Positions 10,701 through 47,870 of a stretch of DNA of 64,000 nucleotides are shown here, piece after piece. The position numbers were made by a program, and so were the translations under genes. Origin of the DNA: Styela clava. Taxonomy: Eukaryota. How positions within the stretch are numbered: position 1 is the first letter of the stretch; each line of letters begins with the position of its first letter. The DNA is taken from assembly GCF_964204865.1 (NCBI RefSeq), contig NC_135250.1, positions 21,390,001-21,454,000 of the forward strand, read 5' to 3'. Under the pieces are notes generated by a model that was not told the DNA's origin, ran no database searches, and saw only the letters and a list, made by a program, of their open reading frames with translations.

Positions 10701-13700
10701 GTCAATTCCAATTGAATAAAACAAAATCTATTTCAAGGCATTAGCTGTGCTGTGCTTATAGATATTTCAAATAACTCAATAGAGCAGCTCACCTTCATTG
10801 GGATCCACCTCATAGCAGATGGCGAGAAGGCGGATATATGTCCCGAATCGCGATCAAAAATTGCGACTGCATTTGCTGAACCTTGAAATTAATAACATAT
10901 GTGTATATAAATCAATTAAAAACTTATATTTTCTCCAGTATTGGGGTCGATCCCAACCAAGTAAAATTACTCCCCAGAGAGTAATCTTGTTGTTTTCGGG
11001 AAGGAAATATTACTCTCTTTTCGGATTAGTTTCGCTATTATTATTTATAATTATTGCAATATTAAGTTTCAAACCAGGCAAAGGGAAGAATGTATCGAAG
11101 AAGATTGGGAACCACTGGCTATCCAAGTACATATGCATAATTTCACCCACCCTCTGCGCAGACGTCAGAAACTTTCGCTGACGAGGAAAAACTCGATGTT
11201 CTGCTGACATTAATACTATCGGTGAAGGATACAAAATAATCTTCATCTGTGGACAAACCTGGAAATTATACAAAAAGAATCTTCATATTAGAGCGTGTAT
11301 ATAAGATACGATGGCGTGTGAAATTTATCTAACTTCGGAATTTCTCATTTTCATAGCTTTGAGCACATTTGCAGATTGATACTTTGACTTTAACTTGCCA
11401 TCTATAAAATAATCATGACCTGAAAAATCTAAACTCTTTCAAGCTGTTTGTAAAAAAAAAGCAAGATAATAGTTTCAAATAACAATAGTGTCAAAATAGA
11501 ATGCTAAGAAAATACCCCCCAATCCAAAATAATTAACTTACTCTTGGGCTTTGTAGCAGTTTCGCGTAGTAAGAACTCGTGCTCTAAAATGTTCTTGCAC
11601 GACGGACGTCTTGCCGGTTCAAATTGCAATGTCCATTCTATCAACTCTTTTGCTGTTTCGGATCTAGGTATCGTAGGAAGCTCAATATTTAGATTCTTGT
11701 TTTTTTTTATGTTGTAATTCCATAAATCGGGTTCGTCGCCAAAAGCATGACGTCCATCACTCAATATGAAATAAACAACCAAACCATAGGAAAAAATATC
11801 CGCTTGTTTCGATATGACATCAGAATTGTAAGTTTCCGGAGCTCGATACCCGTCTGTACCGGGACGAATCATGCTTTGTGCAGTAACCGACCGTCCATGG
11901 CTCAATTCTTTACTCAAACCAAAGTCGGAAATTTTTAAAGATTTCCCATCTAAGGCAAACAAAATGTTTTCGGGCTTGAGATCTCTATGTAATACGTTGT
12001 TTAGATGAATAAATGCGAGTCCTTCGGTTAATTGCCGAACCATTGATTGCTTTTCTGCAAAGAATATTAAGTTTCCAGTGGTCCTCTGCTCAAGAATGTA
12101 ATCATACAGTGTTTTGGTGAGACAAAGTTCCATGGCTATATACATTGTCGGAAACGGCCCTTCTTCGTAAACATCAGAATGAATAATAGACACAACATGA
12201 TGGTGTTGCAATTTCAGAAGTATATTTGCCTCTTTTATATTTGCTTCGTCGTACGGAGTAAGGAATTTGATAGCTATGGGGATATTCCCTGTTATTTTAC
12301 TTAAATGAAGTCCTTGGTAAATGTGTGCTCTCTTGCACAAAGCTCGAGTTTTGAATAATCCAATTTTGTCACTCAATTGTATCCAACCTTTAATGTAAAG
12401 ATTTAAATGACACCAAAAGGCAACGCAGCGGGGCTTTGGTGTTAAAGTACAAAGAATATTACAGTTCTTTAAACGTTAGTTTAAATGACATTAGTTTATA
12501 TAGCTGATAACGAGGGACGTTTAATGCAATTTATGTTAGGACAGAAAATAAAAGAAAAACTTCTTGGCTTGTTCAAATGACTTATCACCATTACAATTCT
12601 TTTTTTGTTTTGATATCGTGTTATGATATTAAATAGATAATCATGAATTAATATTTTATCAGTTTTTGAATAAATACAGAAAATAGGTGCTATACCTTCC
12701 CCAAAATCTTCAACGGGATCTTGTGTGTCTCTTTGTGGGCGTTTTTCGTTCACGCTAGGTGCTGGTGCAGAAGATGCTAGAGCAGAAACATAAATGCATC
12801 ATATTACTTTCACGTGATTGTCCAAAGTACGAAAATATATCCATAATACACTTACTCTGTTCAGTTATGTAAGTGTTGTACGTGTTGTGATATATTTGCT
12901 TTCTGAAATCACCATCAATTACTCCATCTGAAAGAATATAAAAATTTTGAATGAAAATTGAGAAGAAAACACCCTGTAACAAATTAATTTGAATCCTAAA
13001 ACAGATACATGCAATGATCAGGATATGCAATGTAATGCAAAAAGATAACAAATACTGAATGAAAATAAATCTGTAATTATAACCATTCTCTTTAATTATT
13101 CTTCTGAAGGTGCGGAAAATTCTCCCAAGTGTACTGTTTTATCAAATAGAATATAATGAACATTCGCAGCAGGGGTGTACAACAATTTTACCGGTGGACC
13201 ATATAACCAACTTCGGACGTCTCGCTGCGCCACACAAAAAATTTAGATTTTTCCTGTACACGACGAATAAAAAAATTCTCATAATGAAAATTTTATTTAT
13301 TAACGTTTGAGTGGGATACTTAAAATTTTGATTTCTTGCATAGTTTGTTAACATCAGCTTTGACAGAAGATGTAGAACCTCCAACTGACTGGTCAAATGT
13401 TCATCAGTCAGTTGATTTCTGCAGCTGCTTTTGGTGAGATTCATTTTGGAGAAAGAGACACCGGGCAAAATGGCAAAAGATTTAAATCAGGGATACTAGC
13501 AAAAAAACATTATATATTTTTATCAATGTGAGAGTCTTTTTGAACATAAACTGTCGGATTGAGATTTTATGCTTAATGAGAAAAAATCTGAGTGGTAAGA
13601 AGGGCCACGCTAAATGGTTTGGCGGGCCTGGTTGTGGCACGCGGGTCGCCTGTTGCACACCTACTTATCTACAGCGTGCGGAATTTTTGAGTGATTTCTT

Positions 13701-16397: not shown

Positions 16398-19200
16398 TCA
16401 TTCTATTAAATAATCCAAAAAAAAAAACGTACTGCACGGATCATATGCTCTGGCTGCGAGGGTGTTCCATGCCTGACCATAGTACGCTATAGGGTAAACG
16501 TTTTTGAATGGTGGTTCTTCCCCCTCTTTTGTTTGAAACATGACAGCGCCAAACCCATTCTCTGAAGCATTCGTTTCGACATACAAAGGAAGCCTTTGGT
16601 CTACGACTCTATACATAATATAATATTTTCGTATTATTCAGTTGGCGTCGTGCGATCTTGTAGTCTTCAAGTAATTCTCTAGTCTATATTACTGGCGTGA
16701 CTCAGGCTCTTGTGGCAGGTACGTTTCCTGTTAGGGCGTCAAACTTTGCTTGTTTCAGGCTTAGTTTCCGAATATGATCTGCTATATAACTCAGAGCACC
16801 GATCCATCCTCTAAGTTGGTATATATTTCGTGGCGGCGTGAGTTCTTGTAACGCCCTCAGTCCTTCCAGTTGAATCTATTTTTTTTCCACTTAAGGTCGC
16901 GCCTAGAAGGTTGATTCGTGATACTCTCTTATTGATGCTTTCGATTTGCGGTCAATTTCATTTTTGCCAATTGTTCGAAGGTCATTTGGAGCAACATTAG
17001 GTGGTCCTCAACTGTTTTAGTGCTAAGGAAAATGTCGTCTATGTATGCCTCTATCGGCGACGCCTTTGCCTTTTCCAGTCGGTTATTGTTAGTCATCTGT
17101 TCCCGGTATGTCCTTGTTGTGGGTTTCACCACACACTCTTGCATGATAGCCGACCATAACGCAACGGCAGTTTTGAGTCACATCGGCATTTTGCGTCAAC
17201 GTATGTGTAATCCTTTCACTGCTATTCCAAGAAAGGTTTTAGACTCTTCGGTCACATCACAATGAAAATAAGCTTTCTTGAGGTCGAGAAACGTGAATAC
17301 TTCTATTCCCTGCGCCATTTGCTTTACATCGGGTATTAAGTGAGGCGGAATCTCGATCGTTTTCATCGCCGCATTTAAGGGTTGAAGGTTTTGCACAACC
17401 CTCCAGGATTGCTGTCAGCCCTCCTCTTGCTTTTGCCGTTAATTCATCTTTTGAGGCACCACGAATATTGCCAGTTCCCATTCCGCGAACCCCGTCTCTA
17501 ATACTCCGAGGGCCTGTGTACCTACTCCTATATTTCATCCTGAATTATGGTGCTATCGGGCGTTTTTAATCCGGGTGGGGTATATAACACTTTTGCGGGA
17601 CCTCCAGAAGTATGCGCACCAAGATAGCGCACAACCTGAACATAGGTTAGGATTCAGGTTGAGCGACATCTTGGTGCGCATACTTCTGTAGCACCCTTTT
17701 GTGAGTGCTTCTGCTTCGTCGCTAAGTCTCTGTAATTCTTCCCTTACTTCCATCGAAGTTCCTTCCTGTAACCTGTACCGAAGTACCTTCATGTATGTGA
17801 CGGATGATTTACCTGCATTCTGTGCGTCATTCCGGAATTCCAAGGTTTGGCCCTCTCTAGGGCTGGGACTCTATCCTCCGGATCTGGTCCCCCTTTTGTG
17901 TGCTTGAATGTCTAGTCTTTCGAACTCTATTCTTGACCAGAGGTATTGGGCAACTTTAAATACAACTCTGTACTTCTCCCCTCCCTGTAGGCTCCTGGCA
18001 AATGGTCGTCACCCTCTGATTCTCCCACGGCCATTACCAAATTACTTATACACGACGACGGGTCATTCATTTCTGTCCTTATCAACAGCAGCGCTTGTAC
18101 TTGTTCTAACAAGCCAAGGCCGATTATATTCAGTAGTATTCCCTTACCTATAGCGAGATAAATCTCTAGCCCATCTATTTCAATTGTCATCAACGAATTT
18201 ACCTGGCATGTGCCACCTATGCCTATTACCACCCACTCGCCATCGTCATTTTTTGCCAGTATCATACCGGTTGTTCAGAGTATCGCTTTAGCCAGGCAGT
18301 TAGTCGCGATGTGCTCAGAAGCCTTGCACAGGTAGCACACTGATAGTGATTGACCGTTACGTGGTGGGATGTACAGCCCAAGCGGTGCAAAGATGTTTGG
18401 CTGAGCCAAAAAATCATAACGCTCACCTACGCGGTTGGCTATCAAGGAGGCTTCCTGTACACTGCTTGGAGTTGTCTCCTGCTGACTCAACAATTGAGGT
18501 GGCGTTCTCAGTACTGGGTGTGGTCGTTGTTGTAGTCTGGGTGGTATCAGCGGCACCGTAGCACCTCTTTTCGCAGGTCTTCCCTTCCCTGCCTTTTGAA
18601 ATCGAGAAGAAGGCTTTTCTCATGTCTTTGGTCCTTCTTAAGCTTGTCGATGCAGACGATTTCTTGTCGGCTGAGGCGGGTCCCTTCTATTCCCGAATGC
18701 CTGCCCACTTGTGCTACGACGAGATTCCCCCATACTGTTCGCCAATCGTTCATCCTGGACGTTCCTAAGAAAGTAAGGGTACGAGTGTAACGATTCAGCT
18801 TCGAGTGTAACTATGGCAAAAGAAGGCTGCTGCGGATGCTGAGTGTACGTATGTCACCGGTGGAGGCGTGCAAGTGGGTGGGGCGGTTGGCGTCGCTGAC
18901 ATTACAGCATGGGTGGAGGAGCTCCAATATCTCCCGTTTCTGTCGGTCGCTTTGACCGATTGCTGATCTGAAAATTCCAAATTTCAGAACTCTTGCAATT
19001 CCTTTGTTACATCACCCCATGTGTCCTGCTCGTGGCCTTGCATTACCAGCCTGAGGGATTCTGGTAATCTTGATCGGAGATTACGGGAAAGTCTAATTTC
19101 ATCTGGGTCTTTCCTGATTACGTCCTCTAGTTGTATAGTTGGCGCAGTGCCCTTTGTATCCCAATCAAGGGTCTCTTTCTTCAACTGTAACTGTTTGCAA
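16398..19200 (-). mobile_element. Degenerate Ty3/Gypsy-like retroelement internal region (gag with CCHC knuckle, protease-like segment, RT, RNase H); integrase not seen
   Basis: Zinc knuckle CYLCKASEHIATNC (~18295-18336). RT motifs WRVVQNLQPLN, FTFLDLKKAYFH, KMPM and AYIDDIFL. Thumb region PPRNIYQLRGWIGALSY. RNase H LYVETNASENGFGAVMFQ..YPIAYYG. Many stops and frameshifts; GC content is higher than the flanks. Confidence 0.9.
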
Positions 19201-19209
19201 AGTTATTGA

Positions 19210-19330
19210 TAGAGATGCCACTTTTGGATTTCCAAATCGGATCGATTTGAATTGAATCTTTTCCGAATCGATTCGAATCAGATTTATGCGATTCGGAAAA
19301 AGACAGCGATTTACCGAGAAAAAAAAAACA
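19210..19330 (+). mobile_element. hAT-like MITE terminus inserted 5' of or within gag
   Basis: tagagatgcca terminus followed by clustered gattcg/cgaatc subterminal repeats. The partner TIR was not found. Confidence 0.5.
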
Positions 19331-20151
19331 TTGAACGTTTGTTAATCGTTGTTTTCGGCGGCATTAAAACTATTGAATGCGTTTATGCGGAACTCCAAAT
19401 AACACCAAATTACGGGATAAAAATGAAAATGAATTTTTCGTGATTGAATTTTTACTGATCTGCCGTCATTTGTTTCAAGTTCAGCACAACACACTCTTTT
19501 ACGTATCACTCGAGATGATGTGTGGCGTAATTTCCATCAAACTGCGAGTTCAGTTTTCCACTGAATAGCCTGACTAAAACTGAAGTTTTATTATGCGCTA
19601 ATTTAAATGGATCGTATACCTGAAAATCTGTGACAACCTTGATGAGAATTTTCCACAGCACACCTGAGTAGTATATTAGGTTGTTTACGTTTCCTAAAAT
19701 AGAGCCTCCCAGAGGCTCTTAGAGCCTCCCAGAGCCTCTTGTCCATGAACGAATTCACAGAGACTGGTCCTACATGTCCACCTTTTCGGTCAGGTATTAG
19801 AGTATTCGCGTAGAGGGTCAGGGGTGTTTCTCTCTCTCGATAAGACCTTGACATGAGGGAAGATTGGGAAAAAGAAAAATCACGGTATGGTTTAATTTTC
19901 GCCCTTTAATCGATAAGACTTGTTTAAACGGGTGCTCTCTTTATTACCAACTGAACTGAAGAGAGAGAGAAATCTAACTGATTAATCTGGCGAATATATA
20001 AAAAATATTGAACAGGTTTGTAAGTGATTATATTAAAGTATATGAACAATAGAAAACACATTATCACAGAGAGGCACAAACACACATGTAAAAGTTTACA
20101 GGCACAGTAATATATTTAAAAATAAAAGTAAATTGTAAATATTAAAAACGC

Positions 20152-20508
20152 TCATCCCGGAGATTTATATACATTCCAAACCAACATGTTGTCGATACAA
20201 TATAATCCAAATACTCCTGCTTGCAGGTCACTATGTACATGATAAATTTGTGTACGGCGTGTACCACCGGAAGCCTTTCACTTCTCCCCATATTTCTTAA
20301 ATCTGCAAAAGATATGGACAAGAAATCTTTTCAGAGTCGGGATTGTCTCGAACCCATCTGTCCACTCGTAAAACTCCAACGCCTGTAAAAAAAAAACATT
20401 ACGTAAATCATATTTATTGAAAGAACTTTTAAATTATGTTATATATATTTTATTTAAACTTACTTTCAGTATAGCTTCTGTGTAGCTAGGAATTTGTGGT
20501 TTGTTCAT
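20152..20508 (-). pseudogene. Small two-exon orphan gene (~91 aa) of the pPolB cassette, with one premature stop
   Basis: Exon 20508-20464 (MNKPQIPSYTEAILK), an 81-bp GTAAGT..TTTTACAG intron, and exon 20382-20152 (ALEFYEWTDGFETIPTLKRFLVHIFCRFKKYGEK*KASGGTRRTQIYHVHSDLQAGVFGLYCIDNMLVWNVYKSPG*). The phases are consistent. Confidence 0.6.
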
Positions 20509-20784
20509 TTTAATGGATTTATAGAATTAAAAGATTATAATATGAACTGTAAAAATAACAGAACAGAAATTAGGATAAAATAAAAGCACGTAAATGAAAT
20601 GGGAAAGATAACATAATAAAAAGTAAATATAAAGAGTAGTTTAAGAAAATATGTATGAAAAGGTCGGGTAAAGAAAACTTGGCTGTGAAGTAGAAACAAA
20701 CAAAAACCAAAAAAATAGACAAAATTATATTATCTGATATGTACTTTTAAAGAACACTTTATGAAATGTATAAACATGGTGTAA

Positions 20785-23700
20785 CTAAATTAATGAAGGG
20801 CTGGTAGAAATTCCATCACTATGAACTTTTCTCTTCGCGTAAAAGTAAGGCAACCCATTTCGGTATTGTTTATAAGTGTACATTTTATTTTTATAAAGTT
20901 TAAAGTTAACGTTAAACCCACCAGCTGGCTTTTTAGAGAAGAGAACGTTTCGCATTTTATTAAACGTTATATTCTGATGAATATTTTGTTAACCTTTTGT
21001 GGCGAATTTGAAGGTGTTATCACCTTGACAAAAATATGTTTTTGCACAAAGTCCAACAAACGTTTCGCCGGAAAATTCAACTTTGAAAAGTCCCGGTGTT
21101 CGTTTACCAAACTTAAACTGTTTTATACAACATTCACGCGTATCGTCAAATGGTAATAAGTTGGTTTTATTAAAAATGAACTCGTTACGATGAGTTTCAC
21201 ATGATTTAGAGGGGAACCATTTATGATAATTATTATAAAATTCTTCTCGCATATCTGGTTTTACTAACGTTTCTAAATTTTCATTAGAAATAGCTATGTA
21301 CGCTGAGTCCGTATCCATACGAAGGTATTGATAGTCAGAACGATCAGAGTATTTGTCAAAAAAGTCATATTTCAGTTCTAGCATGCGTAACTTCGCGTTT
21401 TGGTACACTACGAATCCAATTTGATTAGGTAATTTCCATGAAATCTGTTTACTTCTTGAATTCACTTCAAATAAGTCGTCATCGAGCTAAGTCGCGCCAA
21501 CAAATGAAGGGTCATTGATTAAGTCTCGTGCTTGTTTACCATCACAATATGTTATGGTCCTGTAGTTGGCGACATTTTCTAACGTCTTTCCATATGAGGA
21601 GTTTCCTGTGAAAAGAAAAATGAAAGTAAATAATAAAAAAAAGGTTTTATAATATGTTTAGACATAAACACCTGTGAAACATGTAAAGATTTACGTGATA
21701 TTATGAGTTGAACGGTGTTATTAAAATTGTGATGAAATAAAACTTACCAAGTAACTTGTATGTATCAGCTAATATTGCTTTTTCTGGTGATGTATCTCCT
21801 TCCCTTCTAGCCGCGGAAACTTCATCACGAAAAGGAGCCAAACATGCTTTAGGTTCATACTCGATAAATTGATATATGTGGGTAATTTGAATTCCATGGT
21901 CGATATACCATCGAACGAGATCAGTCGCTAGAAGAATTTTATTACCAACGTAACTTCCTATGAGTGAACGTCTCGGTTGAGACATTATTTTGTTATTAAC
22001 AGCGTATTGTCCCATATGTTCACCGATATCTTCTCGAGACACTAAAATATTTTTGAAAATAGGAGGCATTTCCGCATAATACTCTTTAAGAGCGTCGGGT
22101 ACTTGAATGTCACACTGGATAGGATAAGACCAAATAGTTTACCTTTCTGAATTGCGTTTATCATTTGTTGCGTTGAAAGTGTGTAACTTTTGAAAAATTC
22201 GGTTGCCTTGATTTAAGAAATGATTTTACCGGTTCTGTTTTGGTAATTTCGTTCCACTCACATTCACGTATTATCACAACTTTATATCCGAGAGTTTGAA
22301 AATGACGTGTGTTTAAGGCTGTGTTTTGCCGTAATTCTTCAGCGTTTTTACCTGGGAAAGTTTCACTTTTACCAATATGACAATTGTGACCGTGAAACAG
22401 ACAACCGTGAAATTGATATATTGTGGCATAATTTGAAGTTATTGAAAAGCCATCAACGGGTAAATTACGCATACCAATTCTTTTTTCAGAGCTATTGAGT
22501 CCGTGTTGAATTTTAATGTTTTGTGAATAACTAACCCAGTCTAACCATGAACAAGCTTTTGAAATATTAGGTGCAGTTTTGGATTTTTTTAAATGATTAT
22601 TCCCGTCAGATTTCCGTCTCACAAGAAATCCGGTTGGAAGTTTTTCACCGATAGCCATTAAGAATAAAGCGTTTGCATCTAATCCTAATACCGACTCACA
22701 TGTTTGAGCGGATTCATCATTATAATCACCACGTATTTTTGTCACACCCGCCTCGTGATACCGATAAAATATCTGTGCCGGTCCACCTACTAAATTAGAA
22801 CGTATCAGTTTATGTATATCGGAATTTTGCTCGTTTGGAACAGTGAAAACAGCGTTTAAGTTTCGAAACGTGACTTGAAGGGTTAACCCCGGTACAGATA
22901 TAGGTACTTTAAACATGTCAATTTGTGTTTTAGCTTTATAAATATCAAATTGTTTTGCAATTGCATCGAGGAAAGGTGTTACATCCTGTGTATTGTAATA
23001 AATGAGATAATCTCTTAATGATTTCATATTACGTTCCCGCCAAACAGTTTTACACTGTTCATATTCAGCCTCAGTAATATTTTTATTTTTCAAATTACTG
23101 AAAAAAGCTGAATGAGGTGGTAACTGTTTATCTTCTAATTTTTTTAAATCATCAATGTACTCATAAGGGAAAAGCCTTTTAGAGACGTTTAATGAAAACG
23201 CCTTAAGAAATTTATCATAGGTATAACCGGGTGCTAAATAATTCATAATATCTAAAAATCTGAATTTTTCAGTTTGTAAAGACATAAATTTATTTCCTTT
23301 TTTTAATGAAAAAATTTTGGAATTTTGTGATTTGAAAAATTTTATCAGATACGGTTTAATTACATTAATATCATATTTCTCGGTTATAACCGAGAATTAT
23401 AATTTGCTTCATAAATTTAATTAACATACTCTTTATTATATTTAAGCCATGTTTTCTGGGTGAAGGGCTTGAATTGATAGAGTGTTTAGAAGCGAAATCT
23501 CTCTCGCGTTGCAGTAAATCCTGTAGTTTTTCATTAATTTGTATAATATAAGGTTCAAATTCAGAAAAAAACAGTTTATATGCGTTTTTTTGAATATTAT
23601 CAATATATTTCATCATTTGAAATATTGATTGTTCTGGATCACCTTCGGTTATGAAACATTTAGCATCCGTGAATCCAGGGACATCGGAATTTATTGCAAC

Positions 23701-25513
23701 GCTAAGAGGGACATGCTCTTTGAGGTATTTGGTGCATTTAGTATCTTCAATTTTATTTGTTACGGGGAAATAACACTCAAAATCAAAAGTTACTCGAATA
23801 GGGTAATATTGTTGATTTAAGGGGATATTAATATTAAAATCTTCAAGACTTTCAAAAACGTTTTTTTGATTTTCATAAACACCACTTATAAATTTTTCTT
23901 TTTGTTGAAGAGAGCAATTACTTGAATGTCTATTTAATTTTCACAAACAATGCCATAACTTTTGACAGGTTTCGCATTGATAATTTTTTGCATAAATGAA
24001 ATAAAAAAAAAATTATTTGAAACAGAATACACGAGTTGGTACAGAAAATTGGAAAGTGTTAAAAACTTACCCTTTAATATCAGTGATGTAACTGAAATGA
24101 TTCTGGTAAAGGTTGACATTGAGAGTATCATCTGAGATTGTAAATTGACTTCTTCGAATCACAATGGCAGTATCAGAGTTTATTAATGGGAACACGTTGA
24201 CACAAACTTGAGAGCAGTCTTCTATTTTAGTCCAGTATTGAAAATCCTTCACTTGGGTCATTTCCCGTGAATTGTGCAAAACGTTGAGCGGCTACCACAG
24301 TGTCGTTCACAAAATTGTTTTTAGAGGGGTCTCGTAAAATTGCTAGGCAGCGAAACATACACAAATTATCCGTGTATGGAATAGTTTTATAACTATTAAG
24401 ACTGAAACAAATTTTGAATTTTTAATGAAGTCTGGTAAACTGACTGAGCAACCGATAAGGTTAAAATTCGTTTTGTTAACGATAAAACAAATGTTTGTTA
24501 CTGACTCAACTTTATCAGAACTTGTAGGTTTTTGGCGTCTTGCCCAGTCTAAACCCATAGTCGTATCGACAAAGTCCATGAATTTTAAAAATTCGCGTTC
24601 AGAAGTTATTATTTGAAGTTCTATGATGGCACCCTCATTTGGGGACGGATGGAAATATCTGAATTGATTTTCAGTGTCAAGGGAAGAGTTTTTCAAAATA
24701 TACCCGAATGAATAACTGATTTTAAATGAAGAGGTTTGACCATCAAATATTGCCCGGAAACTGTCTGTTGCGTTTTCAAAACCAGAGTTTAATAAACGGA
24801 AATTGTAAAAGTCTTGTGTGGTGTTGCCTGTTGAATACTGAGTTTAAATGGAAGCTCAGTGACGTCTGTACACATCTGCGACATGCCGACTCAAAGTTTC
24901 ACATACCTCATCAATATTTTCAGAATTAAAAGTGGTATACTTTTTACGTTTTTTAGTTTCACGTTTTTCAGTAGGTGAACAACGTTTTCTGGAGAACTTC
25001 TCTATTGATACGGTGACACATCGATCTTCTATTGCTGATGAGGGGTTTTTCTGATTTTCTCTCTTTTTAGCGTCAGTTTGAAGTTGGAAAGATGAAGCAT
25101 TTAAATTCTTTTCAGTACACTGATATTCTGATTGTTGGATGCGTAAATCAATAGATTCTGAGACGGGTGCAATCAATGAGTTTTTCTTTATACGTTTACT
25201 TTTTGCTTGTTCAGCTTTTCGCGACGTTTTACTCAAGCTATGAGGTTCAGTGAATGATCTTGTTAATGTCTGATTTCTTACATTGTGAGATTCATTACCT
25301 GATTTAGGCGAAGAGATTTGTGCAGTGTTCAAAGTTTTTTGTCTTTGTCTCTTCCATTTTGATATGTCTCTTGAGATTATCTTTTCTTGAAAACGTTTCC
25401 CCACATTTATGACATTCATATCGTCTCTTTATGTGTACCGTCTTCTGATGTCTTGACAAAATCGCTTTGGTTGAGAACCGTTTCGAGCATATTTCACAAG
25501 TATAACTAGTCAT
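20785..25513 (-). pseudogene. Protein-primed family-B DNA polymerase (Polinton/adintovirus-type pPolB) with N-terminal C2H2 fingers, a VSR-like nuclease insert and two introns; frameshifted
   Basis: Two C2H2 fingers (YTCEICSKRF..RHQKTVH; YECHKCGETFSRKDNLKRH). Exonuclease motifs ExoI VTFDFEC, ExoII ILGYN, FRFLD, LFPYEY and ExoIII YNTQDV. Motif A LGLDANAL; VDGF..YQFHGCLFHGH; motif B KLLG^NSSYGK; motif C MDTDS; KRTPGLFKVE..GLCAKTY; C-terminal KRKVHSDGISTSP. Introns at 21747-21606 and 24070-23996. Confidence 0.92.
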
Positions 25514-25599
25514 AATTCTAATATTAACTATAATCTAAAGCAAAAACAAAAAACACATATTACAAAACACAGTAAAAATGAATATTTATATGAATGTAA

Positions 25600-26415
25600 T
25601 CAACGATAATGGTGGGACACTTGAGCACATGTGATAAGAGTACTTTCATTTAATATGATAGCAGATTCGCCTTCAAACATTGCTTTCATTCCAAAAACGA
25701 TATCATGCTCCATATTCACGAATCTGAAAAAAAAAAAAAATATATATATATATATTATAAATATTATCTTTTTAAGTGAAATATAAGTTTTATATACGTT
25801 AATAGTAACTTACGTTAAACAAGGTATTTCCACTTGAAAACCTCTTTGAACTAAAGAGCTCATAAAACATGTAAATAAAACCTTGGCTTCACAAAAACAG
25901 AATATCTTTAACGGGAAGGTAATTAATTTAGGTTTTTGGTTTACTTTTACACGTCGTTGAATATTTACTGGTAATATTTTATTAAGTTGAAATAGTTCAT
26001 AAAAAAGTACTTTACATGAGATGTTACGTAACCCATGCAAATTCAAACTGGACAATGGTGAATAAATGAAGCGTCTTAATGCGTATTTAACCGCTAAGCG
26101 TTCAGTGTAGCAAAAACCGCTTAGTCCCATGTATGTAGAAAGATTAAATTCGGGGTGATTTGAAATAGTCATTGCAGTGAAAACGCATGATGCTAATAAT
26201 ACTTCTGTATGATACGAGAGTTTTTTGTTTTCATCATTTGAGCTGAAAGTTAACTCCTGAATATGTTTGATAATATTTTGTGTGATAGTTATTATTAACT
26301 TTTTAGGTAAAGAGAGTTTAAGAATAATGGGTTCGTGTATGTTCAGATATAAAGATTGCTGAATGTGATACACGATAACTTCGTAACACATATTCAACAA
26401 ATTAATGGGTTTCAT
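25600..26415 (-). CDS. Two-exon orphan protein (~240 aa) of the pPolB cassette
   Basis: The 201-codon ORF ends at a GTAAGT donor (25813). A 90-bp intron leads to TTTTCAG (25724), followed by an in-frame second exon FVNMEHDIVFGMKAMFEGESAIILNESTLITCAQVSHHYR*. No family recognised. Confidence 0.6.
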
Positions 26416-26527
26416 TTTAAATGTAAGACTTAAAAATAATACTTAACACATATACATGGAGAGATAATTAAAAAAAAAACGTTATGTTCAATTATTATTG
26501 ACGGCTTGATAAGCGGTGTACACTTGC

Positions 26528-26945
26528 TCTAAACAATCTCGACAAAGACGGGGCTAAGGAATAGGTGTTTCAGTAGAACTATCAGCGGTCCGTATTTTGC
26601 GTGGTCTTTTTTTACGGTGCTCTTTGTGGGTTCTTCTTTTCTTAGTGGTCTGTGATAAAATAATAATGCGATAAAAATCAACTCGTATAATTGCATACGC
26701 TATTAAGTAAAAAGTACCTTTTCTTACGCGGTGTTGGTAAAGTCTTACTACAGCATGGTACCTCTGTCTGTTTTTTCTCTTCAACAACAACTTCTGCCAC
26801 TGTTTCAATCGATTTAACTCTAAAATTTAGATTAAGTTATAAATTTAATAATTAAGTATTACCTTAACTAACCTTACTCTTGCTCAGACTCCAGTATTAC
26901 TTGACGTATGATATTATCTAACTCTTCTTCATCAGAAAACGACAT
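26528..26945 (-). CDS. Putative small spliced (probably three-exon) orphan gene
   Basis: ATG at 26945 (MSFSDEEELDNIIRQVILESEQ..). AT-rich intron-like gaps end in TTTTAG (~26820) and TCACAG (~26650), with charged or basic exons between. Exact splice sites are ambiguous. Confidence 0.4.
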
Positions 26946-27050
26946 TTTTTCAACTTGATAAAAAAAAATATATTAAACTAGTTACTTGGTAAAAAATTAA
27001 GTGTTACATAATAAAAAATTCACTCAGTAAAAATATCTCAAACGTTAAAT

Positions 27051-27365
27051 ATGCAACATTTACATATGTTCATGATCGTTTCAACTTTATTTACTGCTCA
27101 CTGTTTTATTATTAATAACAACTCGTTAGTCACTCGTATACCTTGTGATGACACTGACTGCGAGGAATTGAGTGGTGAAGTCTTCAGTACTGAAGTATTA
27201 AACGAAACCACGACTTTTTATCCTGAAAAAGTGGATCAAAATTTTCTTTATATATACGCCCCGTATTTATTTATTATTTTTTATTGTACTTCACTTATCT
27301 CATGCTTTTGGGCAATAATTTTAAGAAAAAATAAAAATAAAAACATTCATATTTGTAAAGCGTGA
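27051..27365 (+). CDS. Small putative type-I membrane protein (104 aa), divergently oriented
   Basis: Signal-like N-terminus (MFMIVSTLFTAHC), an acidic ectodomain with NxT sequon (NET), a hydrophobic segment (YIYAPYLFIIFYCTSLISCFWAIIL) and a basic tail RKNKNK. Confidence 0.55.
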   Translation: MQHLHMFMIVSTLFTAHCFIINNNSLVTRIPCDDTDCEELSGEVFSTEVLNETTTFYPEKVDQNFLYIYAPYLFIIFYCTSLISCFWAIILRKNKNKNIHICKA

Positions 27366-34011: not shown

Positions 34012-34461
34012 AGCCTCTTTCTCCCTGTGTGTCGCAGTTACACAGTGTGGAAAATGACTGTCTGAAGTTAGGGCAGTGAAGGATAACGGTCAGATGGCAA
34101 AAAAAATATTATTATTCTGGTAAAAATAGCCCAATTGACCCGAAATTTGCAGGGAATGTAAATTACCTCACACATGTTCTACCGAGCAATTTTGACGTTG
34201 TTTGGACATAAATAGTCGTGTTATCGATGAAAATATGGTGATTTTGTCTGAAGTTAGGTGCTTTTACGGTTATAAAACAGGTGGGTCTTCAAATTAGACA
34301 TTGTGATTTAATTGGTTAACTCTTCTTGATTTATGTATGCCTCAAAAGTATTTACAAAAAAATATAAACAGCATGTCCTTATTTTTTTGCAGATCTTTCG
34401 ACTCTAATATATTCTGATATAAGAGAAATTTACAGCAGTCTATGATTTTTTGATAATAATT

Positions 34462-37400
34462 ATGAGTTTAAATAATGATGGGTACTGTACCGGAAATCAG
34501 GAAACCATTGCAAAAATATCTTTGAATGAAACTCTTCAAACTGAAACTTCCAGTATTGCTATCAGTATATGTTCTGAACCAGTAGAAGAAAATAAGCAGA
34601 GCTCTTTTACAGAAATGCCTCTCAGCCTTGAGCTTCTTCCTGATGACCTCACATCATCAGATTCAATCCTTGGTAATGATATCAACTCTGATAAAACAGA
34701 AACTGAATGTACTGAGCCATCTTTTATGATATCAGAAGATTCCATCGCTCTCGGGGAAGCTCATTTTGAACCTTTTCCGGAACAAACTTCAACTTCGGTA
34801 TCATCATGTTTCAGCAGGAATCGTGAACTCGAATGTGATGATTCTCTAGATGCCTCATCGAGAGACATGAATAGTTTTCCAGCAACTTTTAAATCACTTG
34901 AGAAAGATGAGGATGAAGATGATATCTTTGTTATTGCTTCTGAAGAGTCTTCTATGGATTCGGGACTGGGATCGGTCGATTCTACTTACCCAAATAGCGA
35001 AGAAGAAAATACACTTTCGCCACCTACTATGGATAAACAGTCATCCCATGTTCATGGTAATAATGATTTTATGATATCAATTTTTTTGAATATTAGTCTT
35101 TCATTTAATAAGGTGTATGAACCCATCTGAAAATATATCATTAATACGCAGTCACAAACGATGAATGACTTTTCATGAGCTACTTGTAGACCTACTTAAG
35201 ATGAGATAGTCATAGTCAAGACTTGTTAAATTGTACCATATTGTATTAAGGGCTCCAGTCAACTATCATATTCTGATATCTGTATCAGGAATTGAGCAAG
35301 TATGACTGAACAGAATTGGCTATGCCTTACCTTGGTACAGCTGATTCTGCTATTTTATCCTCAATTTCTCTATTTGTATCAACTTTTTTTACATCGCTAA
35401 CAGGTACTCAGAATTCTAGTTCAACCAACCTCGGGGCTGACGAATTCTGTGATTGCTTGACTACAACTTCCAACACTGATTCAGCAAGACCAAAGAAGCG
35501 TAAACATGACTTGGATGGTATGATGTGTATCTCGTTCTGAAAATTTCCAAGCGATAACTGAAGGCTATAAGAATATAAACAGGCGCAATAAAATCGCCTC
35601 CAACCGTCATAAAATCACTAAGATGTTCTTTACTTGGCCTGGTATTGTTTAGATTGATGTAGAGAATTTAGTCGCTAATCCAGATTTCTTATTGCATGTA
35701 GCTAGGGATGGGCAATGTAGAATAATTTACTATTCTAGAATACTTAAATCGAATCCAGAATACCGAATCCTATTTTAATTTTATTATGGGGCTCCCGAAG
35801 TATGCGAACCAAGATGGCGGACATCGGATCGTAACATGGGTAACAGGTTAGGGTTAGGCGATAATTTTTTTCCAATTTTCCTTATTTTAGTCCTATTATC
35901 AGTTCGAAGACTAGCCAAGAGCCTCCCGTAGTATTTATACCTAAAATTATGGCCTAACCCTCCCCTAGTACACATTACATTCCGATGCCCGCCATCTTGG
36001 TTCGCATACTTCGGGAGCCCCTTTATTATTATTCAAATGTGGGAATTCTTCCACCTCATTGATGGATTACATATAAAAAAAAGCAAAATTGATTGGATTT
36101 TATTTGTTACCAAACAGGACAATGGAACATAAGAATTTTAACAAATTACTTTGTGCCTTGAATAGATCAAAGTTTATGTGATCCCTAAATACTTAATATG
36201 TTAAAATTAATAGCGCATTATCCGCCTTGATAATAAATTGTGAAATTACAATATGAAAAAACATCAAATTATTATTAATCTGAGAGCGGCGAAAACACAC
36301 AGGCCAAACCGAGGCCGCTGCAATTTATGTGGTCGCAATGGGTGCCGCCGTTCCTATGGCGCATTAATTAAAAGTGCAAAATAAATTTAACGACTATCGA
36401 TTATAATCAAGTATGTCAGCCTGTTTATTTTCTGCAAGCAAGACTTGTAAACTAACATTGATAGACAAATTATTTCTATTGCAAAATCGTAATTTTCAGT
36501 TAATATCATTATATATAGCCTGACCTGGCGATACGCTTTGCAAAATGTCTATCAATAGATAAGGCCGGATAGGAAAACTGTCTCCACCACAAGCGACAAC
36601 TTTTCCAATTTATTGTCAACTAACATACCGCCCGACATTCAACCAAACGTGTGTCCAGCTTGGGCGATAGGAACGGATTCATCGTCGACTTTAATTTTGT
36701 AAAGTATGGTATGTAATTTATTGGTAGTGCAAAATGAATGTTACAAAACGTCTTGTTTTGCGATATAACTTTGTATTTTTGGAAACGGGGTGTCGTAAAA
36801 ATAAAATTTGATCCTAATTAATCGCAAGTAATGTTTTATAGGTCTATCTAATGTCTGGTACATATCATTTTCCGAGAGAAATCAAAGGCCGCGGAAAGCC
36901 ATTTAATTTAAAATGAAAGAATGTTTCACATATTCCAAAAATTTGAGTTGGAACCATCAGGTAATCGGAAAATCTGCTCATGCCAGTAAGTCGGACTCTG
37001 CACCAATAATAATAATTATTATAAGCGAACTAGATAGTAAAATTGTAATACGCAAAAATGGTGCAATAACGTCGTCTTCGCGTTCTGAATATGCAAGCTG
37101 GCATTCAGTGTTTGATGTCTGCTGCTTTTGTGGATTCTTTGTGAGAAAACACAACGATAATCAAACGAGAGAGATTTCGTCGCGAGGGAGAACGCTTGTC
37201 GCTGATTATTAAAAAATGAGAAATCGAAACACAAAAATTTACGCACAGCGCCGAAGAGGCGGAAACCGGATCCTGTTATCGGATCCTTCTCGATTCGAAT
37301 CCTCCTCGATTTGAATCCTCCGGATTGGGTATTCTATTTTGCCCATCCCTACATTTAGCATACTTTTTGGTATCCGAGGATATCAAATAGACAGAAACAT

Positions 37401-40400: not shown

Positions 40401-42382
40401 TTACTAAATTTTGAATAATTTTAAAAAGAAAATGGATTTTCACATTGAAATATTTTGATATTCCAAATTTTGTCCATAATGGGTTTTCATACACAAAGCA
40501 GACTTACGGGAAAGATTAATGGACCAATAAATTTTAAATTTCAGTACTCGAAGATGGAGGAAGTCGCTAGAAGGCTATTAGTTTAATTTTTTTCAAATTT
40601 CGTCCAAGTCCTGTGGGACCCAATATTTCACAAATATTTTAGCTGTTTTATAATAATTAAAGAGGAGCATTTTCATTTCTCATTGCTTTTCTGACGATCT
40701 TTTCAGTAAATATGGTAGCGATGCACAACCGTCCTGATATTTGAGCATTGCTCTAGTCTCTTGTTTCCTGTTCATCAGTTTCAGCAATTTTTATACACAT
40801 TTTTATACATAAATCATGCTTCAGTGTGGTTTTATTAAATAGGTATAAAAGTAGTACTTTATATAGATGTCCTAACAGCGCTGGACTGATTGTTATTTTT
40901 ATGCCACACATGAAGGAAATGAATACACTGAAAAATTGTTATATTTGGTATAATATATTCCTAAATTTAACAATTATTTTGGATGTTTAACATTTTCCGC
41001 CCCGCAATGCCAAGTGAATTACTGAATTCCAACCTTTTTATATATGTATATGCTATTTGATTTGGCTAGGTTGATCGAGAAGGCTTTCCTTGTGGTTGTG
41101 CAGCGTCACAGTGCCAAAATGAGAACGGAAGAATAGAATTCGATTCGGATAGAGTGAGAACTCATTTGTTGGAAACTATGGAAAGACTTAGCACTGTACA
41201 AGATGGTAAGCTGGAGATTTATAAGATTGAATCTCTATTACTAAATTACTCAGACCGATCGTCTAAAGCAGAAATGGTATTCCAAAATATATATTTCGAA
41301 TGTATAATACTTAGTCTGTTCTATATTTGTGGGCACAGTTGCCTAGTGGTAAAGCGTTAGACTTAACTAGGGTGCTATCGTGGGTTAAAATCTCATTTTC
41401 AAGTATCATGTTCACCACCTAACCCAGGGTGTAATAAATTGGGTAGGCAATCCTGAACCAGAAAGATTCCGGCCACTCTAAAATACAGGAGCTCCTTACA
41501 TATCAGCGGCTGCTTGTGTAGAGCCTTGTCCAGAACGTATGAAAATACAGCACAGTTCATATGTTTTTATTTTTTGAAATTTGAATGTGCTAGAGACGCT
41601 AGTGCTGAAGTCTGTTGGCATGCTGGTATTCCTGCTAGTGCTCTTTGAAAAATATAATCATTAAATGCAAATTAATAATTTTTATGTGTTATTAAAAAAC
41701 AGGATCTCAAGTGGAGGTTTCTGACTGCCAAACAGGAAATGAACTGGAGTCTGTGGCGAGCAGCGAGTCTGAGTGCGATTTTCTGTCTTCAGATGAAACT
41801 GATCAATCTGATGAAGTACTAGGCATGCATCAGCGAACACACATCAAATTTGAGGATGCTGAGACGTGTGTTTGTATAAAAAGTAGTGACAGGACCGTCT
41901 CTAATAATTCCGACTACAATAATCCTACGAGTGGCCCTGAAAAGAACAAATCGCCGTCTTTCGAGTTTTTGAATGCCCTTGGTCTAAGTAAAATTGATTT
42001 GACTCACTTTTCATATGGGCCAACGACGGAAGTATCTGCAAACATAACAAGTACTACTCTCACTGATATTTTGATTGAAAATTCTGCCGAAATACCTCAC
42101 AGCACAGTCGTTCCTTATGAACAATTTTCTCCCTTTATGCACAATGATAATATACACCATCACATCACAATAGAGTCCCTAGCGCAGTCTATACCTAACC
42201 CAACCGATCTGCCACAACAAGCTACTAGGCCCATGTTTGGCACTACACTAGCCAAATCATGCTCGCAAGACAATCCAACCAGCAGAGATTGCTCGGTCTT
42301 GCTTGATCCGATTGCTACATTCATGACCTCTAGTTATAGCATATCTTCAAATTCAGAAACAATCCCATGTACTAGCAACTAG
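34462..42382 (+). CDS. CSRNP: Cysteine/serine-rich nuclear protein (CSRNP/AXUD1 family)
   Basis: Coding exons 34462-35056, 35404-35517, 37532-37672, 38129-38259, 39051-39226, 40037-40181, 41070-41205 and 41703-42382, all GT-AG and in phase. Family signatures [104 protein letters not shown]. Confidence 0.95.
35703..37351. mobile_element. Non-autonomous hAT element in a CSRNP intron
   Basis: TIRs tagggatgggcaa / ttgcccatcccta, an 8-bp TSD catgtagc / catttagc and gaatcc subterminal repeats. Confidence 0.9.
35788..36021. mobile_element. Palindromic MITE nested in the hAT element
   Basis: 33-bp perfect TIR ggggctcccgaagtatgcgaaccaagatggcgg / ccgccatcttggttcgcatacttcgggagcccc, with internal ggttagggttagg / cctaaccct. 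Related internal sequence occurs at ~3925-4025. Confidence 0.9.
41329..41460 (+). mobile_element. Degenerate tRNA-derived SINE head
   Basis: A-box-like gttgcctagtggtaaagcg and B-box-like gggttaaaatctc at tRNA spacing. No complete cloverleaf. Confidence 0.5.
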
Positions 42383-45813: not shown

Positions 45814-46920
45814 CTAAGCGATGCTGTCGTCGATTGATGACGTAGCACAGTTGGTATCTTTTACGGCAGTTGCTTCGACGAGTGTCGCCATATTGCAATC
45901 TTCATGCGTCCCGTCGCCTTCGCACTTTTTCCATGGTAGTAGAATAGTTTTCCACTCTGAAAATGATAATACTGATCCAAACACTTTAATGGTTTGATTG
46001 GTCAGTGCAACAGCTGGGAAATCATACCATTCGTAAACCATCGAATAATTGAGCAACGTTACCATCACCTTTACAACAAAAAATACCACGGATACAAAGA
46101 ACGATCGCTTTATCAGAGGTACCGCATATGATAACGCACTGCTTCCGGCCCCTCCCTCTTTTCTTTCTTTTCTATAGCGTAATAATGGATAGAAAAACAA
46201 ACCAAGAAGAATGATGTTTTCGAAGATTCTCACAAAGGCTACTGTTAGTATAATTCTTCTAGCTCCCGTATGTAGATAATTGTTGAGGCATTTCTTTGAG
46301 GATCCCATTGACAGAATTAAAGGCGCTATGAAAATAGGGTATATTACTGTCAACGTTCCCCCGACGATGCTAAGACGTCTCGTTATTCTGTTTGTTAATT
46401 TACGCAAAAGCGGAGCACAGTACACCATTCTCTGTCTGCACCACAATGATGTAAGAACTGCAGTGTTTGTTGAAATTCCAAGAATAGTAACAAGGATTTT
46501 TGGAGTTGTGCAGTGCTCAAACTTCCAATAATCAAATACCAGGGTAACGTTACTACACGCACTCGCCACTATTTGCAAGATGACTGCTAGGAGTATGCAA
46601 CGCTTCGTCCATCCACACCAATCTATTGATTTGATGTAGCAAAAACGCCGCCGACTCTGGTTGTTATCGTAGAAGTGTAACATTGCAATAAGCAAATAGA
46701 GACATAAAATGAAGTTGAAAATACGTATTATCGCCATTATTGATATTTTACCAGAAGTATAGGAAGCAAAATCAGTGTTTTTCTTAATCCAGGATCCGAA
46801 GTGCGTTGCATTGGTCACATTGGAAATGACTTCATTGAAGTTGTCTTCTTGGTCCAATAACTTTTCTCGATTCCAGGAGGCCATGTTTGGCTTGTTTGCT
46901 AGTCTACTGTAACTTGCCAT
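45814..46920 (-). CDS. Intronless divergent seven-transmembrane (GPCR-like) receptor, 368 aa
   Basis: N-terminal N-glycosylation sequons (NVT, NAT) and about seven hydrophobic segments. Cys at the top of TM3 and in ECL2, an R at the DRY-equivalent position (LWCRQRMVY), FFYPL at the end of TM5, and helix-8-like FSEWKTILLPW. Confidence 0.8.
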   Translation of the reverse strand: MASYSRLANKPNMASWNREKLLDQEDNFNEVISNVTNATHFGSWIKKNTDFASYTSGKISIMAIIRIFNFILCLYLLIAMLHFYDNNQSRRRFCYIKSIDWCGWTKRCILLAVILQIVASACSNVTLVFDYWKFEHCTTPKILVTILGISTNTAVLTSLWCRQRMVYCAPLLRKLTNRITRRLSIVGGTLTVIYPIFIAPLILSMGSSKKCLNNYLHTGARRIILTVAFVRIFENIILLGLFFYPLLRYRKERKEGGAGSSALSYAVPLIKRSFFVSVVFFVVKVMVTLLNYSMVYEWYDFPAVALTNQTIKVFGSVLSFSEWKTILLPWKKCEGDGTHEDCNMATLVEATAVKDTNCATSSIDDSIA

Positions 46921-47870
46921 TGGTGTTATAACATGTGATGCAGTGTGGTATCCCGTTGTAGATTCCCTCTAACTGGTATAAAAGACTGCATTTTTTTCTA
47001 TTTATATATCCAAATTTATACCAACTTTTCATTCATTGTCGAATCTATTCAACACGCTCTCAAATCTAATATAGGCATATCACAATAATCAGGGCGTGAC
47101 TAATTGTGTGACTCATGCTTAATGCATAATCTGACTGAAACTGACTTAATCAGTCACTCTTTCCCGATTGACTTGCATCATATTTACTTTTTATTTCCTG
47201 AATTAAATTCGCTCAGCAAGTCATGATGATATCATCCAATTCATATTTTTTTTTTACATTTATTCAACGTCATCTGTTCATCAATAAATCAACACGGTGT
47301 CGTTGACACGATGACTTTTGCAGTCTTTCGCGGCTCCGCGTCAATTGCGATATATTGTATGCATGTATACTTCAGTCTTCAATTGATTTTTGTATTATCA
47401 TTATAATTGTTTAATTGCGTACAATATTTCATGCACGACGAAATAAAACTTCTGAGTTCTGAGTTCTAATCTGGTACAATTCCAACGTGAACGGACAGAC
47501 TCTAGATTTAAGACTGATAGGCCACGTGAGATTTTGACTCAGATTTTTGCATATTACATAGTAAAAGAGTGGATGATAAATTGGGAACATTTTGTAAACT
47601 TATATTTAAAAATTAATAAATGTTATTCCTCTAAATATATTTTCTAAAATGTTTTTTTAAAACAGTTTTCCATTATATTCTCTAAAAACTAGATGGATTC
47701 CGATAGGCACCAACGCACAAAGGCGTAAATGTTAATCAAATTCGAAAGAGAAGACTGTAATGAAGTGTATGCCTCAAAATAATATACAATATTTAACATC
47801 TTCATGAACTCCAGTAATAGTTTTAGACTGAAATCGAAAATTTAATATTTTAAAATGTGTTTAAGAACTT

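Follow-up and report, generated by a model that had tools for sequence, protein, structure and literature searches.

Spliceosomal introns, one of them in catalytic motif B, in a Polinton-type DNA polymerase gene of the ascidian Styela clava

The canonical Mavericks or Polintons of vertebrates and nematodes encode the class of polymerase described here, and most of their copies are decayed, as is ours (PMC8097293; bioRxiv 10.1101/2022.07.12.499685). In these accounts the core genes are called intronless (PMC8097293), and in nematode Mavericks introns are given for cargo genes only (bioRxiv 10.1101/2022.07.12.499685). Likened by description, the Vsr-bearing pPolB2 Polintons of Trissonchulus and molluscs (Jeong et al., bioRxiv 10.1101/2023.08.22.554363) have a Vsr-like domain between motifs A and B in common with our gene; where that preprint speaks of introns, twice, it means group I introns, whereas the polymerase described here possesses two spliceosomal introns. 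Spliceosomal-type introns inside Polinton-like DNA are also reported for the introner-containing eupolintoviral elements of dinoflagellates (PMC12166617). In those protists the inserts stem from intron-generating transposons, of which they are copies, while here the host is an animal, the six introns are dissimilar, and polymerase RNA is observed in spliced form. A parallel of another kind is the third intron of the Drosophila P element, likewise a last intron whose retention truncates the protein before its catalytic end; regulation and repressor function are proven there (PMC7776569), whereas here there are two isoforms only and the enzyme is a polymerase.

The stretch analysed, hereafter the window, comprises 64,000 nucleotides of Styela clava (GCF_964204865.1, NC_135250.1:21,390,001-21,454,000), and all positions below are those of the window. 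Unlike canonical Polintons, the polymerase and three adjoining ORFs, designated A, B and D, are split by short introns. The features are as follows.

26529..26945, minus strand: ORF-A, about 96 aa, predicted three exons
26877-26820 (58 nt) and 26717-26650 (68 nt), minus strand: predicted ORF-A introns, both phase 2, called from the sequence by GT-AG ends and consistent phases
25600..26415, minus strand: ORF-B, about 241 aa, with an intron at 25813-25724 (90 nt, phase 2)
24071..25513, minus strand: pPolB exon 1, residues 1-482 of the RefSeq paralog P0001; two stops, three frame changes
23996..24070, minus strand: intron N, 75 nt, phase 2, GTAAGT donor, 3' end without AG
21748..23995, minus strand: pPolB exon 2; one stop, three frame changes
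21606..21747, minus strand: intron B, 142 nt, phase 1, in the Gly codon of motif B, GTAAGT..CAG
20785..21605, minus strand: pPolB exon 3, rest of motif B, motif C and KxY; two stops
20152..20508, minus strand: ORF-D, small, with an intron at 20463-20383 (81 nt, phase 0) and an in-frame stop at 20280

Exon 1 specifies two C2H2 zinc fingers, a low-complexity linker and the N-terminal region, and exon 2 Exo I-III, motif A, a Vsr/RAP-like nuclease insert and the first half of motif B. Pfam matches on exon 2 are DNA_pol_B_2 [E 6.7e-7] and RAP [E 1.4e-6]. Judged by motif positions on P0001 together with PF03175 and RAP, the gene is a pPolB2 with a Vsr insert, having Exo I-III and motifs A, B, C and KxY in order and the Vsr-like domain between A and B; the motif labels are those which we take to apply to P0001. 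Two relatives bear the name VSR endonuclease in their own source. A PDB sequence search gave zinc-finger matches only among the best 60 of 112.

Tiled on P0001, the window copy covers 1452 codons, of which 1310 match (255 of 270 residues in exon 3). It is interrupted by in-frame stops at 24858, 24846, 23943, 21489 and 20991 and by frame changes near 25300, 24400, 24240, 23380, 22190 and 22120, and is a dead gene, a pseudogene. An earlier reading made from the sequence alone had passed over these five stops and six frame changes. A retrotransposon remnant adjoins the dead copy.

The insert GTAAGT..TTTCACAG at 21747-21606 interrupts, in phase 1, the Gly codon of K-L-L-G / N-S-S-Y-G-K. The sequence-only reading had proposed that its removal restores the frame, and this was borne out: the flanking exons tile P0001 once exactly 142 nt are taken out between them. 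The insert has the GT donor, pyrimidine tract, AG acceptor and frame-restoring position of a U2-type intron; given its base composition, a GTAAGT start with a YAG end would arise by chance with a probability of about 1e-6. The GC content of introns B and N is 24%, against 33-36% in the exons. A GT-AG joint skipping exactly 142 nt, the RNA junction that the same reading had asked for, occurs in both of the two sequencing runs (X6 and X8) that we guess to be RNA, which belong to a single study and fit a paralog 6-9% different, not the window copy. For runs X1 and X10 this joint is absent among the matches listed. The intron is present in genomic reads, namely four raw reads with three starts in X10, about 6% of which was read, and one contig from X1, at a depth of 35. 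Intron B is thus a spliceosomal intron in a Polinton-type pPolB, seen removed in paralog-derived RNA.

Insert N (24070-23996) is of the same general form. Its GTAAGT start, T-rich 3' end, in-frame stops and offset of exactly 75 nt (phase 2) against P0001 agree with the second intron that had been proposed; the AG is missing from the window copy, and decay of the acceptor, also proposed, is presumed. X8 contigs cover 24071-25600, terminating precisely at the edge of exon 1, and 21747-23995, so that both exon edges at site N (23995 and 24071) are contig ends; the N joint itself is not among the matches listed. Splicing at N is less directly supported than at B, and its removal in working copies presumably occurs as in the annotated paralog described next.

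Styela clava LOC120328465, an "uncharacterized protein" in RefSeq, is 90% identical to the window copy, has an open frame and possesses the same motif-B intron. Both of its isoforms join across site N. X1 is spliced at the motif-B site; X2 is the same as X1 to residue 1231 and then has a 14-residue tail matching the read-through of window intron B, which reaches a stop after 15 codons, at 12 of 14 positions. X2 is therefore spliced at N with intron B retained. Spliced and unspliced contigs at intron B (depths 11.2 and 6.2) also occur together in run X8. The claim of spliceosomal introns in a Polinton-type pPolB is supported by the spliced motif-B joint and by a paralog annotated in spliced and retained forms; "adapted to host splicing" goes beyond this. 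The window copy is a pseudogene, and the supporting RNA is from a paralog 6-9% different. Two RefSeq versions of the open frame are 99.5% identical. In run X1, positions 24850-25210 are represented by at least three versions (0, 32 and 48 differences), and versions within one sample are found in every identity band between 99% and below 90%.

Signs of splicing extend to the neighbours. A GT-AG joint skipping the 81 nt of the ORF-D intron occurs in X6 and X8, and contigs from both runs start exactly at 25814, the edge of the ORF-B intron. ORF-B has no homologue in Pfam, a set of 5.8 billion sequences, 1.84 billion representatives or the ESM Atlas, and its single-sequence model is unusable (pLDDT 37.7); one frame across ORF-A gave no Pfam match. 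An introner origin of the cassette introns was considered and rejected, as no pair of the six beats shuffled sequences and none has a second copy in the 64 kb.

Relatives of the window gene at 30-49% identity adjoin ATPase, rve-chromo integrase and capsid-like genes, as do pPolB2 Polintons. Among the intronless relatives, L003, L022 and L001 each adjoin an A32-type ATPase gene; the first two have an rve-chromo integrase nearby as well, and L022 a weak jelly-roll match. Comparison in both directions, with 732 ORFs from related loci searched against the window and 822 segments of the window searched against those loci, found in the window no retroviral-like integrase, which may lie in other copies, and no packaging ATPase, protease or major or minor capsid protein, remnants of which could escape if intron-split or decayed. 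No long inverted pair flanks the cassette in the window, nor are there terminal inverted repeats or a target-site duplication; the copy may be truncated. Since no integrase, ATPase, capsid or protease remnant and no terminal repeat was found in the window, the family can be called no more than putatively mobile.

Clear introns occur in seven of 80 related loci, five of them in motif B, at two sites other than the window's and in separate clades. Motif B is uninterrupted in 64 of the 80, and site N in all 61 loci that cover it. The intron position, which one might have hoped to find conserved, is not, and the single lineage suggested earlier gives way to intron-bearing relatives in separate clades, with different sites, among intronless kin. 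It had also been held that the idea would fall if intact homologues lacked the inserts and the inserts matched unrelated repeats; the homologues do mostly lack them, and the six introns are not repeated in the window. When the window's own intron is counted, motif B is interrupted at three sites that span no more than 14 nt, and their carriers belong to three different parts of the tree. Read-through meets a stop within 1-15 codons in five of six cases; the L056 intron, by contrast, can be read through in frame. Of the ten distinct sites, six lie in two intervals of 7 and 14 nt, so that sites cluster in two catalytic motifs (motif B and the Vsr motif) beyond the prediction of a neutral model, by a statistic picked after the data were seen; a conservative count gives P 0.02. 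Nearly all sites lie at or beside Gly codons, and G|G is the usual insertion context of spliceosomal introns. A relaxed scan of the relatives recovered every clear call except L052 site 886 and added only noise, with one flank of about 30 or below. A conserved element within the introns designated 1229 is unsupported; only the pair L013-L053, close relatives, beat all 500 shuffles. Among database proteins (clusters) reaching the stretch before motif C, 126 of 143 end at one common point, and most ENA homologues end at residue 1315-1316; a large pPolB family appears to be cut just before motif C. Three queries of IMG/VR returned no confirmed relative.

The window locus is probably a decayed copy of a multi-version cassette carrying a Polinton-type pPolB2 (Vsr) whose introns were gained after its split from intronless kin; that the direction was gain, we infer from those kin. 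A working copy would be transcribed by Pol II in the nucleus, and the host spliceosome would then take out both introns, leaving a message for a 1503-aa polymerase. Retention of intron B would yield a 1245-aa product without motifs B and C, most likely through ordinary incomplete splicing of a last intron. Polintons are thought to replicate DNA to DNA with no RNA step, and because of this a well-splicing intron would persist in every daughter copy. Repeated gains, kept through such replication, are the most likely history. Clustering of the sites in motifs counts against this explanation, which covers it solely through the preference for Gly codons.

By analogy with the P element third intron, the motif-B intron may instead be a regulated switch, the spliced form specifying active polymerase and the retained form a polymerase-dead product. 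The latter would keep the zinc fingers, N-terminal region, exonuclease and Vsr domain and might act as repressor, primer donor or nuclease. The P element precedent itself (PMC7776569), the annotated isoform that retains B and yet is spliced at N, the two kinds of contig in X8, and the three motif-B sites with their early stops are all in keeping with such a device. Unspliced pre-mRNA is, however, common in RNA data, and the runs come without tissue, stage or strand information; the L056 intron would not truncate the protein, motif B is not the sole site (there is a similar cluster in the Vsr motif, and the large family is apparently cut before motif C), and most relatives are intronless. We consider the switch unlikely, and equally doubtful its extension, that animal Polintons have repeatedly and independently placed introns in motif B and use their retention to turn the polymerase on and off.

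Rather improbable is that this is a captured, domesticated polymerase module which gained introns after mobility ceased, the versions being local or segmental duplicates. P0001 does sit on a long isolated branch (0.85) in the tree of relatives, the open frame is nearly invariant between the RefSeq versions, the neighbouring ORFs have no homologues in the searches made, and no Polinton hallmark gene or terminal repeat lies within the 64 kb. Yet a single sample contains versions spanning 99% to under 90% identity, and the dead copy lies next to a retrotransposon remnant, a picture that resembles a repeat family; intron-bearing pPolB genes occur in amplified families elsewhere, as the 126 clusters ending at one site indicate.

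It is more doubtful still that the introns mark nuclease targets. Under this proposal, made by analogy with collaborative homing in phages, the polymerase-fused Vsr would cut the motif DNA of rivals, break repair would make introns, and the intron would shield its carrier. Homing elements favour conserved sites, as spliceosomal introns normally do not (PMC2814812), and nuclease conflict has been proposed for Polinton-like viruses (PMC11296320); six of ten sites in two short intervals would fit. Most Vsr-bearing relatives, however, are intronless, nearly all sites lie at or next to Gly codons, and the clustering, by a statistic picked afterwards, is weaker in the conservative count. Finally, that the inserts are intron-like decay insertions in a dead copy is scarcely credible: the window copy is a pseudogene and insert N has no AG end, but insert B is skipped with exact GT-AG ends in two runs and recurs as an intron in a paralog whose frame is open, which contradicts the idea for that insert.

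That polymerase RNA is spliced means that these elements are transcribed in the nucleus and are subject to the splicing control of the host. Our literature search found no regulatory mechanism of Polinton replication, and the annotated retained isoform makes control by splicing testable. A large screen used prokaryotic gene calling, the reason given being that endogenous viruses lack introns (PMC10120064). The earlier warning that plain ORF scans miss such genes was sound, as ORF callers do shorten them. Because seven of 80 loci clearly bear introns and 126 of 143 proteins stop at one point, intron-blind searches have probably counted working elements as broken and missed some lineages.

The two inserts that the sequence-only reading had described in the polymerase gene (pPolB, 20785..25513) were both found at their positions:

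21747-21606 (-): insert B, 142 nt; GTAAGT donor, pyrimidine tract ending in CAG; phase 1, in the Gly codon of motif B
24070-23996 (-): insert N, 75 nt; GTAAGT donor, T-rich end; no AG in the window copy

The top database match to the window polymerase is P0001 (Styela clava RefSeq LOC120328465, 1503 aa; a single sequence under several accessions), and tiling against it matched 1310 of 1452 codons, the alignment stepping by exactly 75 nt at insert N and 142 nt at insert B. From this one named match, Styela clava or a close relative is the likely host. The same tiling revealed five in-frame stops and six frame changes, and the window copy is dead. Both inserts have a GC content of 24% as against 33–36% in the exons, and the two terminal splice words of insert B would be expected together by chance at about 1e-6. 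The ends were as previously read (GTAAGT at both, CAG at B, AG absent at N in this copy), and the observation of inserts in pPolB is confirmed, with evidence of splicing now added.

Four of the 14 listed sequencing runs (X1, X6, X8 and X10) were aligned to 19900–27300 at 82% likeness. X6 and X8 are guessed to be RNA and belong to one study, the X1 contigs are probably genomic, and X10 consists of shallow raw genomic reads. Contig alignments that skip the 142 nt of insert B, with GT-AG ends, occur in X6 (depth 9.6, short side 86 letters) and X8 (depth 11.2, short side 28 letters); among the joints listed there was none for insert B in X1 or the shallow X10, and none for insert N in the four runs across this region. 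An X1 contig of depth 35 is continuous across intron B, and four X10 reads carry small indels within it. Intron B is removed in the RNA-like contigs and kept in the genomic reads; X8 also has a contig in which it is unspliced (depth 6.2). Contigs of X8 end at 21606, 21747, 23995, 24071 and 25814, which are predicted exon edges, and splicing of insert N is supported indirectly. The RNA-like contigs are 6–9% divergent from the window and therefore derive from another copy; the spliced junction looked for at insert B is thus seen in paralog-derived contigs of probable RNA.

Evidence independent of the run contigs, and resting on RefSeq gene models, comes from LOC120328465, whose isoform X1 is annotated as spliced at both insert sites. 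Isoform X2 (XP_077976561.1, 1245 aa) is the same through residue 1231 and then bears a tail of 14 residues, 12 of which match read-through of intron B, so this open-frame paralog has the same intron, annotated spliced and unspliced. If intron B stayed in the transcript, the product would keep the zinc fingers, the N-terminal region, the exonuclease, motif A and the Vsr domain and would lack motifs B and C. By analogy, such an intron might be a regulated switch like the P element third intron (PMC7776569); we rate ordinary incomplete splicing above this.

Introns also split three small ORFs of the pPolB strand, which together with pPolB make up the cassette:

26529..26945 (-): ORF-A, two introns, predicted from sequence
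25600..26415 (-): ORF-B, one intron; X6 and X8 contigs both start at the exon edge
20152..20508 (-): ORF-D, one intron; joint present in X6 and X8

ORF-B has no detectable homologue in Pfam, the 5.8-billion set, the 1.84-billion representatives or the ESM Atlas. A pyrimidine tract with AG lies at 25535 (-), 22 nt ahead of the pPolB start codon, and another at 20547 (-), 39 nt ahead of that of ORF-D; they might be acceptors of a 5' UTR intron or of trans-splicing. The cassette's six introns are mutually unrelated and each is without a second copy in the window, so on window content they are not an introner family. The stretch 24850–25210 has at least three versions in X1, and the 396 X1 contigs fall in every identity band (95, 116, 94 and 91 at 99+, 95–99, 90–95 and <90%), so the cassette is present at more than one locus.

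Relatives were obtained by a profile search of metagenome contigs, and the best 80 of 189 confirmed loci (30–48% identical to P0001) were scanned for introns by scoring both flanks of every GT-AG pair. Seven of these 80 had clear introns, with residue sites counted on P0001:

After residue 1229, phase 0: motif-B GT-AG introns L002:8843-8928, L013:9226-9307, L053:1978-2063 and the weaker L056:1855-1956 (in frame, AAG end)
Residues 886, 1012 and 1233: L052, including motif-B GT-AG intron L052:3487-3581 and Vsr-insert intron L052:2667-2773
Residues 670, 755 and 1012: L037, including Vsr-insert intron L037:2365-2489
Residue 1010: L050, Vsr-insert intron L050:2233-2398

L037 and L052 have three introns apiece. 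In L002 a zinc-finger part occupies its own frame (L002:4667-5041) and is followed 300 nt downstream by the main polymerase ORF. In both L002 and L013, long ORFs are nearly absent from the 5 kb that precede pPolB, possibly owing to further intron-split genes.

As to conservation of intron position, to which the sequence-only reading had looked, motif B is interrupted in relatives as well, at other places: these introns belong to two other clades and are displaced from the window's site by 4 nt in the upstream and 10 nt in the downstream direction, and 64 of the best 80 loci are uninterrupted there. Site N is uninterrupted in all 61 covering loci. A quick tree of 96 rows left P0001 unplaced on a long branch, united the 1229 group in one clade (SH-aLRT 98) and put L052 in another with five intronless loci (SH-aLRT 99). 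The idea of a single intron-adapted lineage is not supported by this comparison, the intron-bearing relatives being in separate clades, with different sites, beside intronless loci. We infer several separate intron gains across pPolB2 lineages, most of them at a Gly codon or next to one; a single ancestral intron, with sliding and many losses, is an alternative that may still account for these sites.

Three intron sites fall within 14 nt in motif B, and three within 7 nt in the Vsr insert, at its conserved His-Gly-Cys motif. Ten distinct sites, the residue 1315–1316 site being left out, include six pairs at most five codons apart (P 1.5e-4, detectability-weighted null, for a statistic picked after data inspection); P is 0.005 when sites have to be near a Gly, and a conservative count of nine sites gives 0.02. 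This concentration in catalytic motifs stands unexplained; a site preference of this kind is unusual for spliceosomal introns (PMC2814812).

Database proteins P0012 and P0016 (40% identical to P0001), which group with a different clade, terminate directly behind K-L-V-G-K, which is the end expected from a donor at the Styela site. Among proteins reaching the stretch before motif C, 126 of 143, all of one closely related family, end at residue 1315–1316, in two forms each compatible with a phase-2 donor; 15, including an 82%-identical relative, go on to motif C. The 126 belong to the ENA family (P0004-P0192, e.g. P0053 and P0004), whose sister clusters P0104 and P0119 read through. Judged from these protein ends, there are putative introns at both places, and intron gain within the one amplified family of 126 is possible.

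The intronless L001, L003 and L022 adjoin genes for an A32-type ATPase, L003 and L022 also for an rve-chromo integrase, and L022 a weak jelly-roll match, as in Polintons, and the Vsr insert matches the pPolB2 group described by Jeong et al. (bioRxiv 10.1101/2023.08.22.554363). In the window, no remnants of integrase, ATPase, capsid or protease were found (732 ORFs of related loci against the window; 822 window segments against the loci), nor terminal inverted repeats flanking the cassette. The gene behaves like a Polinton polymerase, but what the window contains does not suffice to class this copy as a Polinton. The cassette would be transcribed in the nucleus and its introns removed by the host spliceosome. 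Under a model in which a Polinton-type element copies DNA to DNA, with no cDNA route of loss, introns would spread with the family.

In the accessible parts of the literature, intact vertebrate Mavericks are without introns (PMC8097293), nematode Polintons have intronless core genes and intron-bearing cargo genes (bioRxiv 10.1101/2022.07.12.499685), and protist endogenous viruses are treated as intron-free in gene calling (PMC10120064). The closest precedent there is introner sequence within dinoflagellate eupolintoviral elements (PMC12166617). In such parts, including PMC8502044, PMC12220804, PMC11131425, PMC12721341, PMC6431247 and bioRxiv 10.64898/2026.07.28.741278, splicing of a Polinton polymerase from an animal was not found to be described.

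Other features of the window are as follows:

45814-46968 (-), 34423-35130 (+) and 41696-42382 (+): open frames of 384, 235 and 228 codons, without Pfam match
~16400-19300 (-): decayed GC-richer retrotransposon just downstream of the cassette, retaining traces of a zinc knuckle and a reverse transcriptase (RVT_1 E 5e-5 near 17000), and with a 44-nt inverted repeat inside it at 17597-17696
11504-12475 (-): host protein kinase exon (Pkinase E 3e-42)
57043-57822 (+): long exon that closes with the first part of an FGF domain (E 8e-5)
1-1530: array of a 186-bp satellite, whose orientation flips near 350
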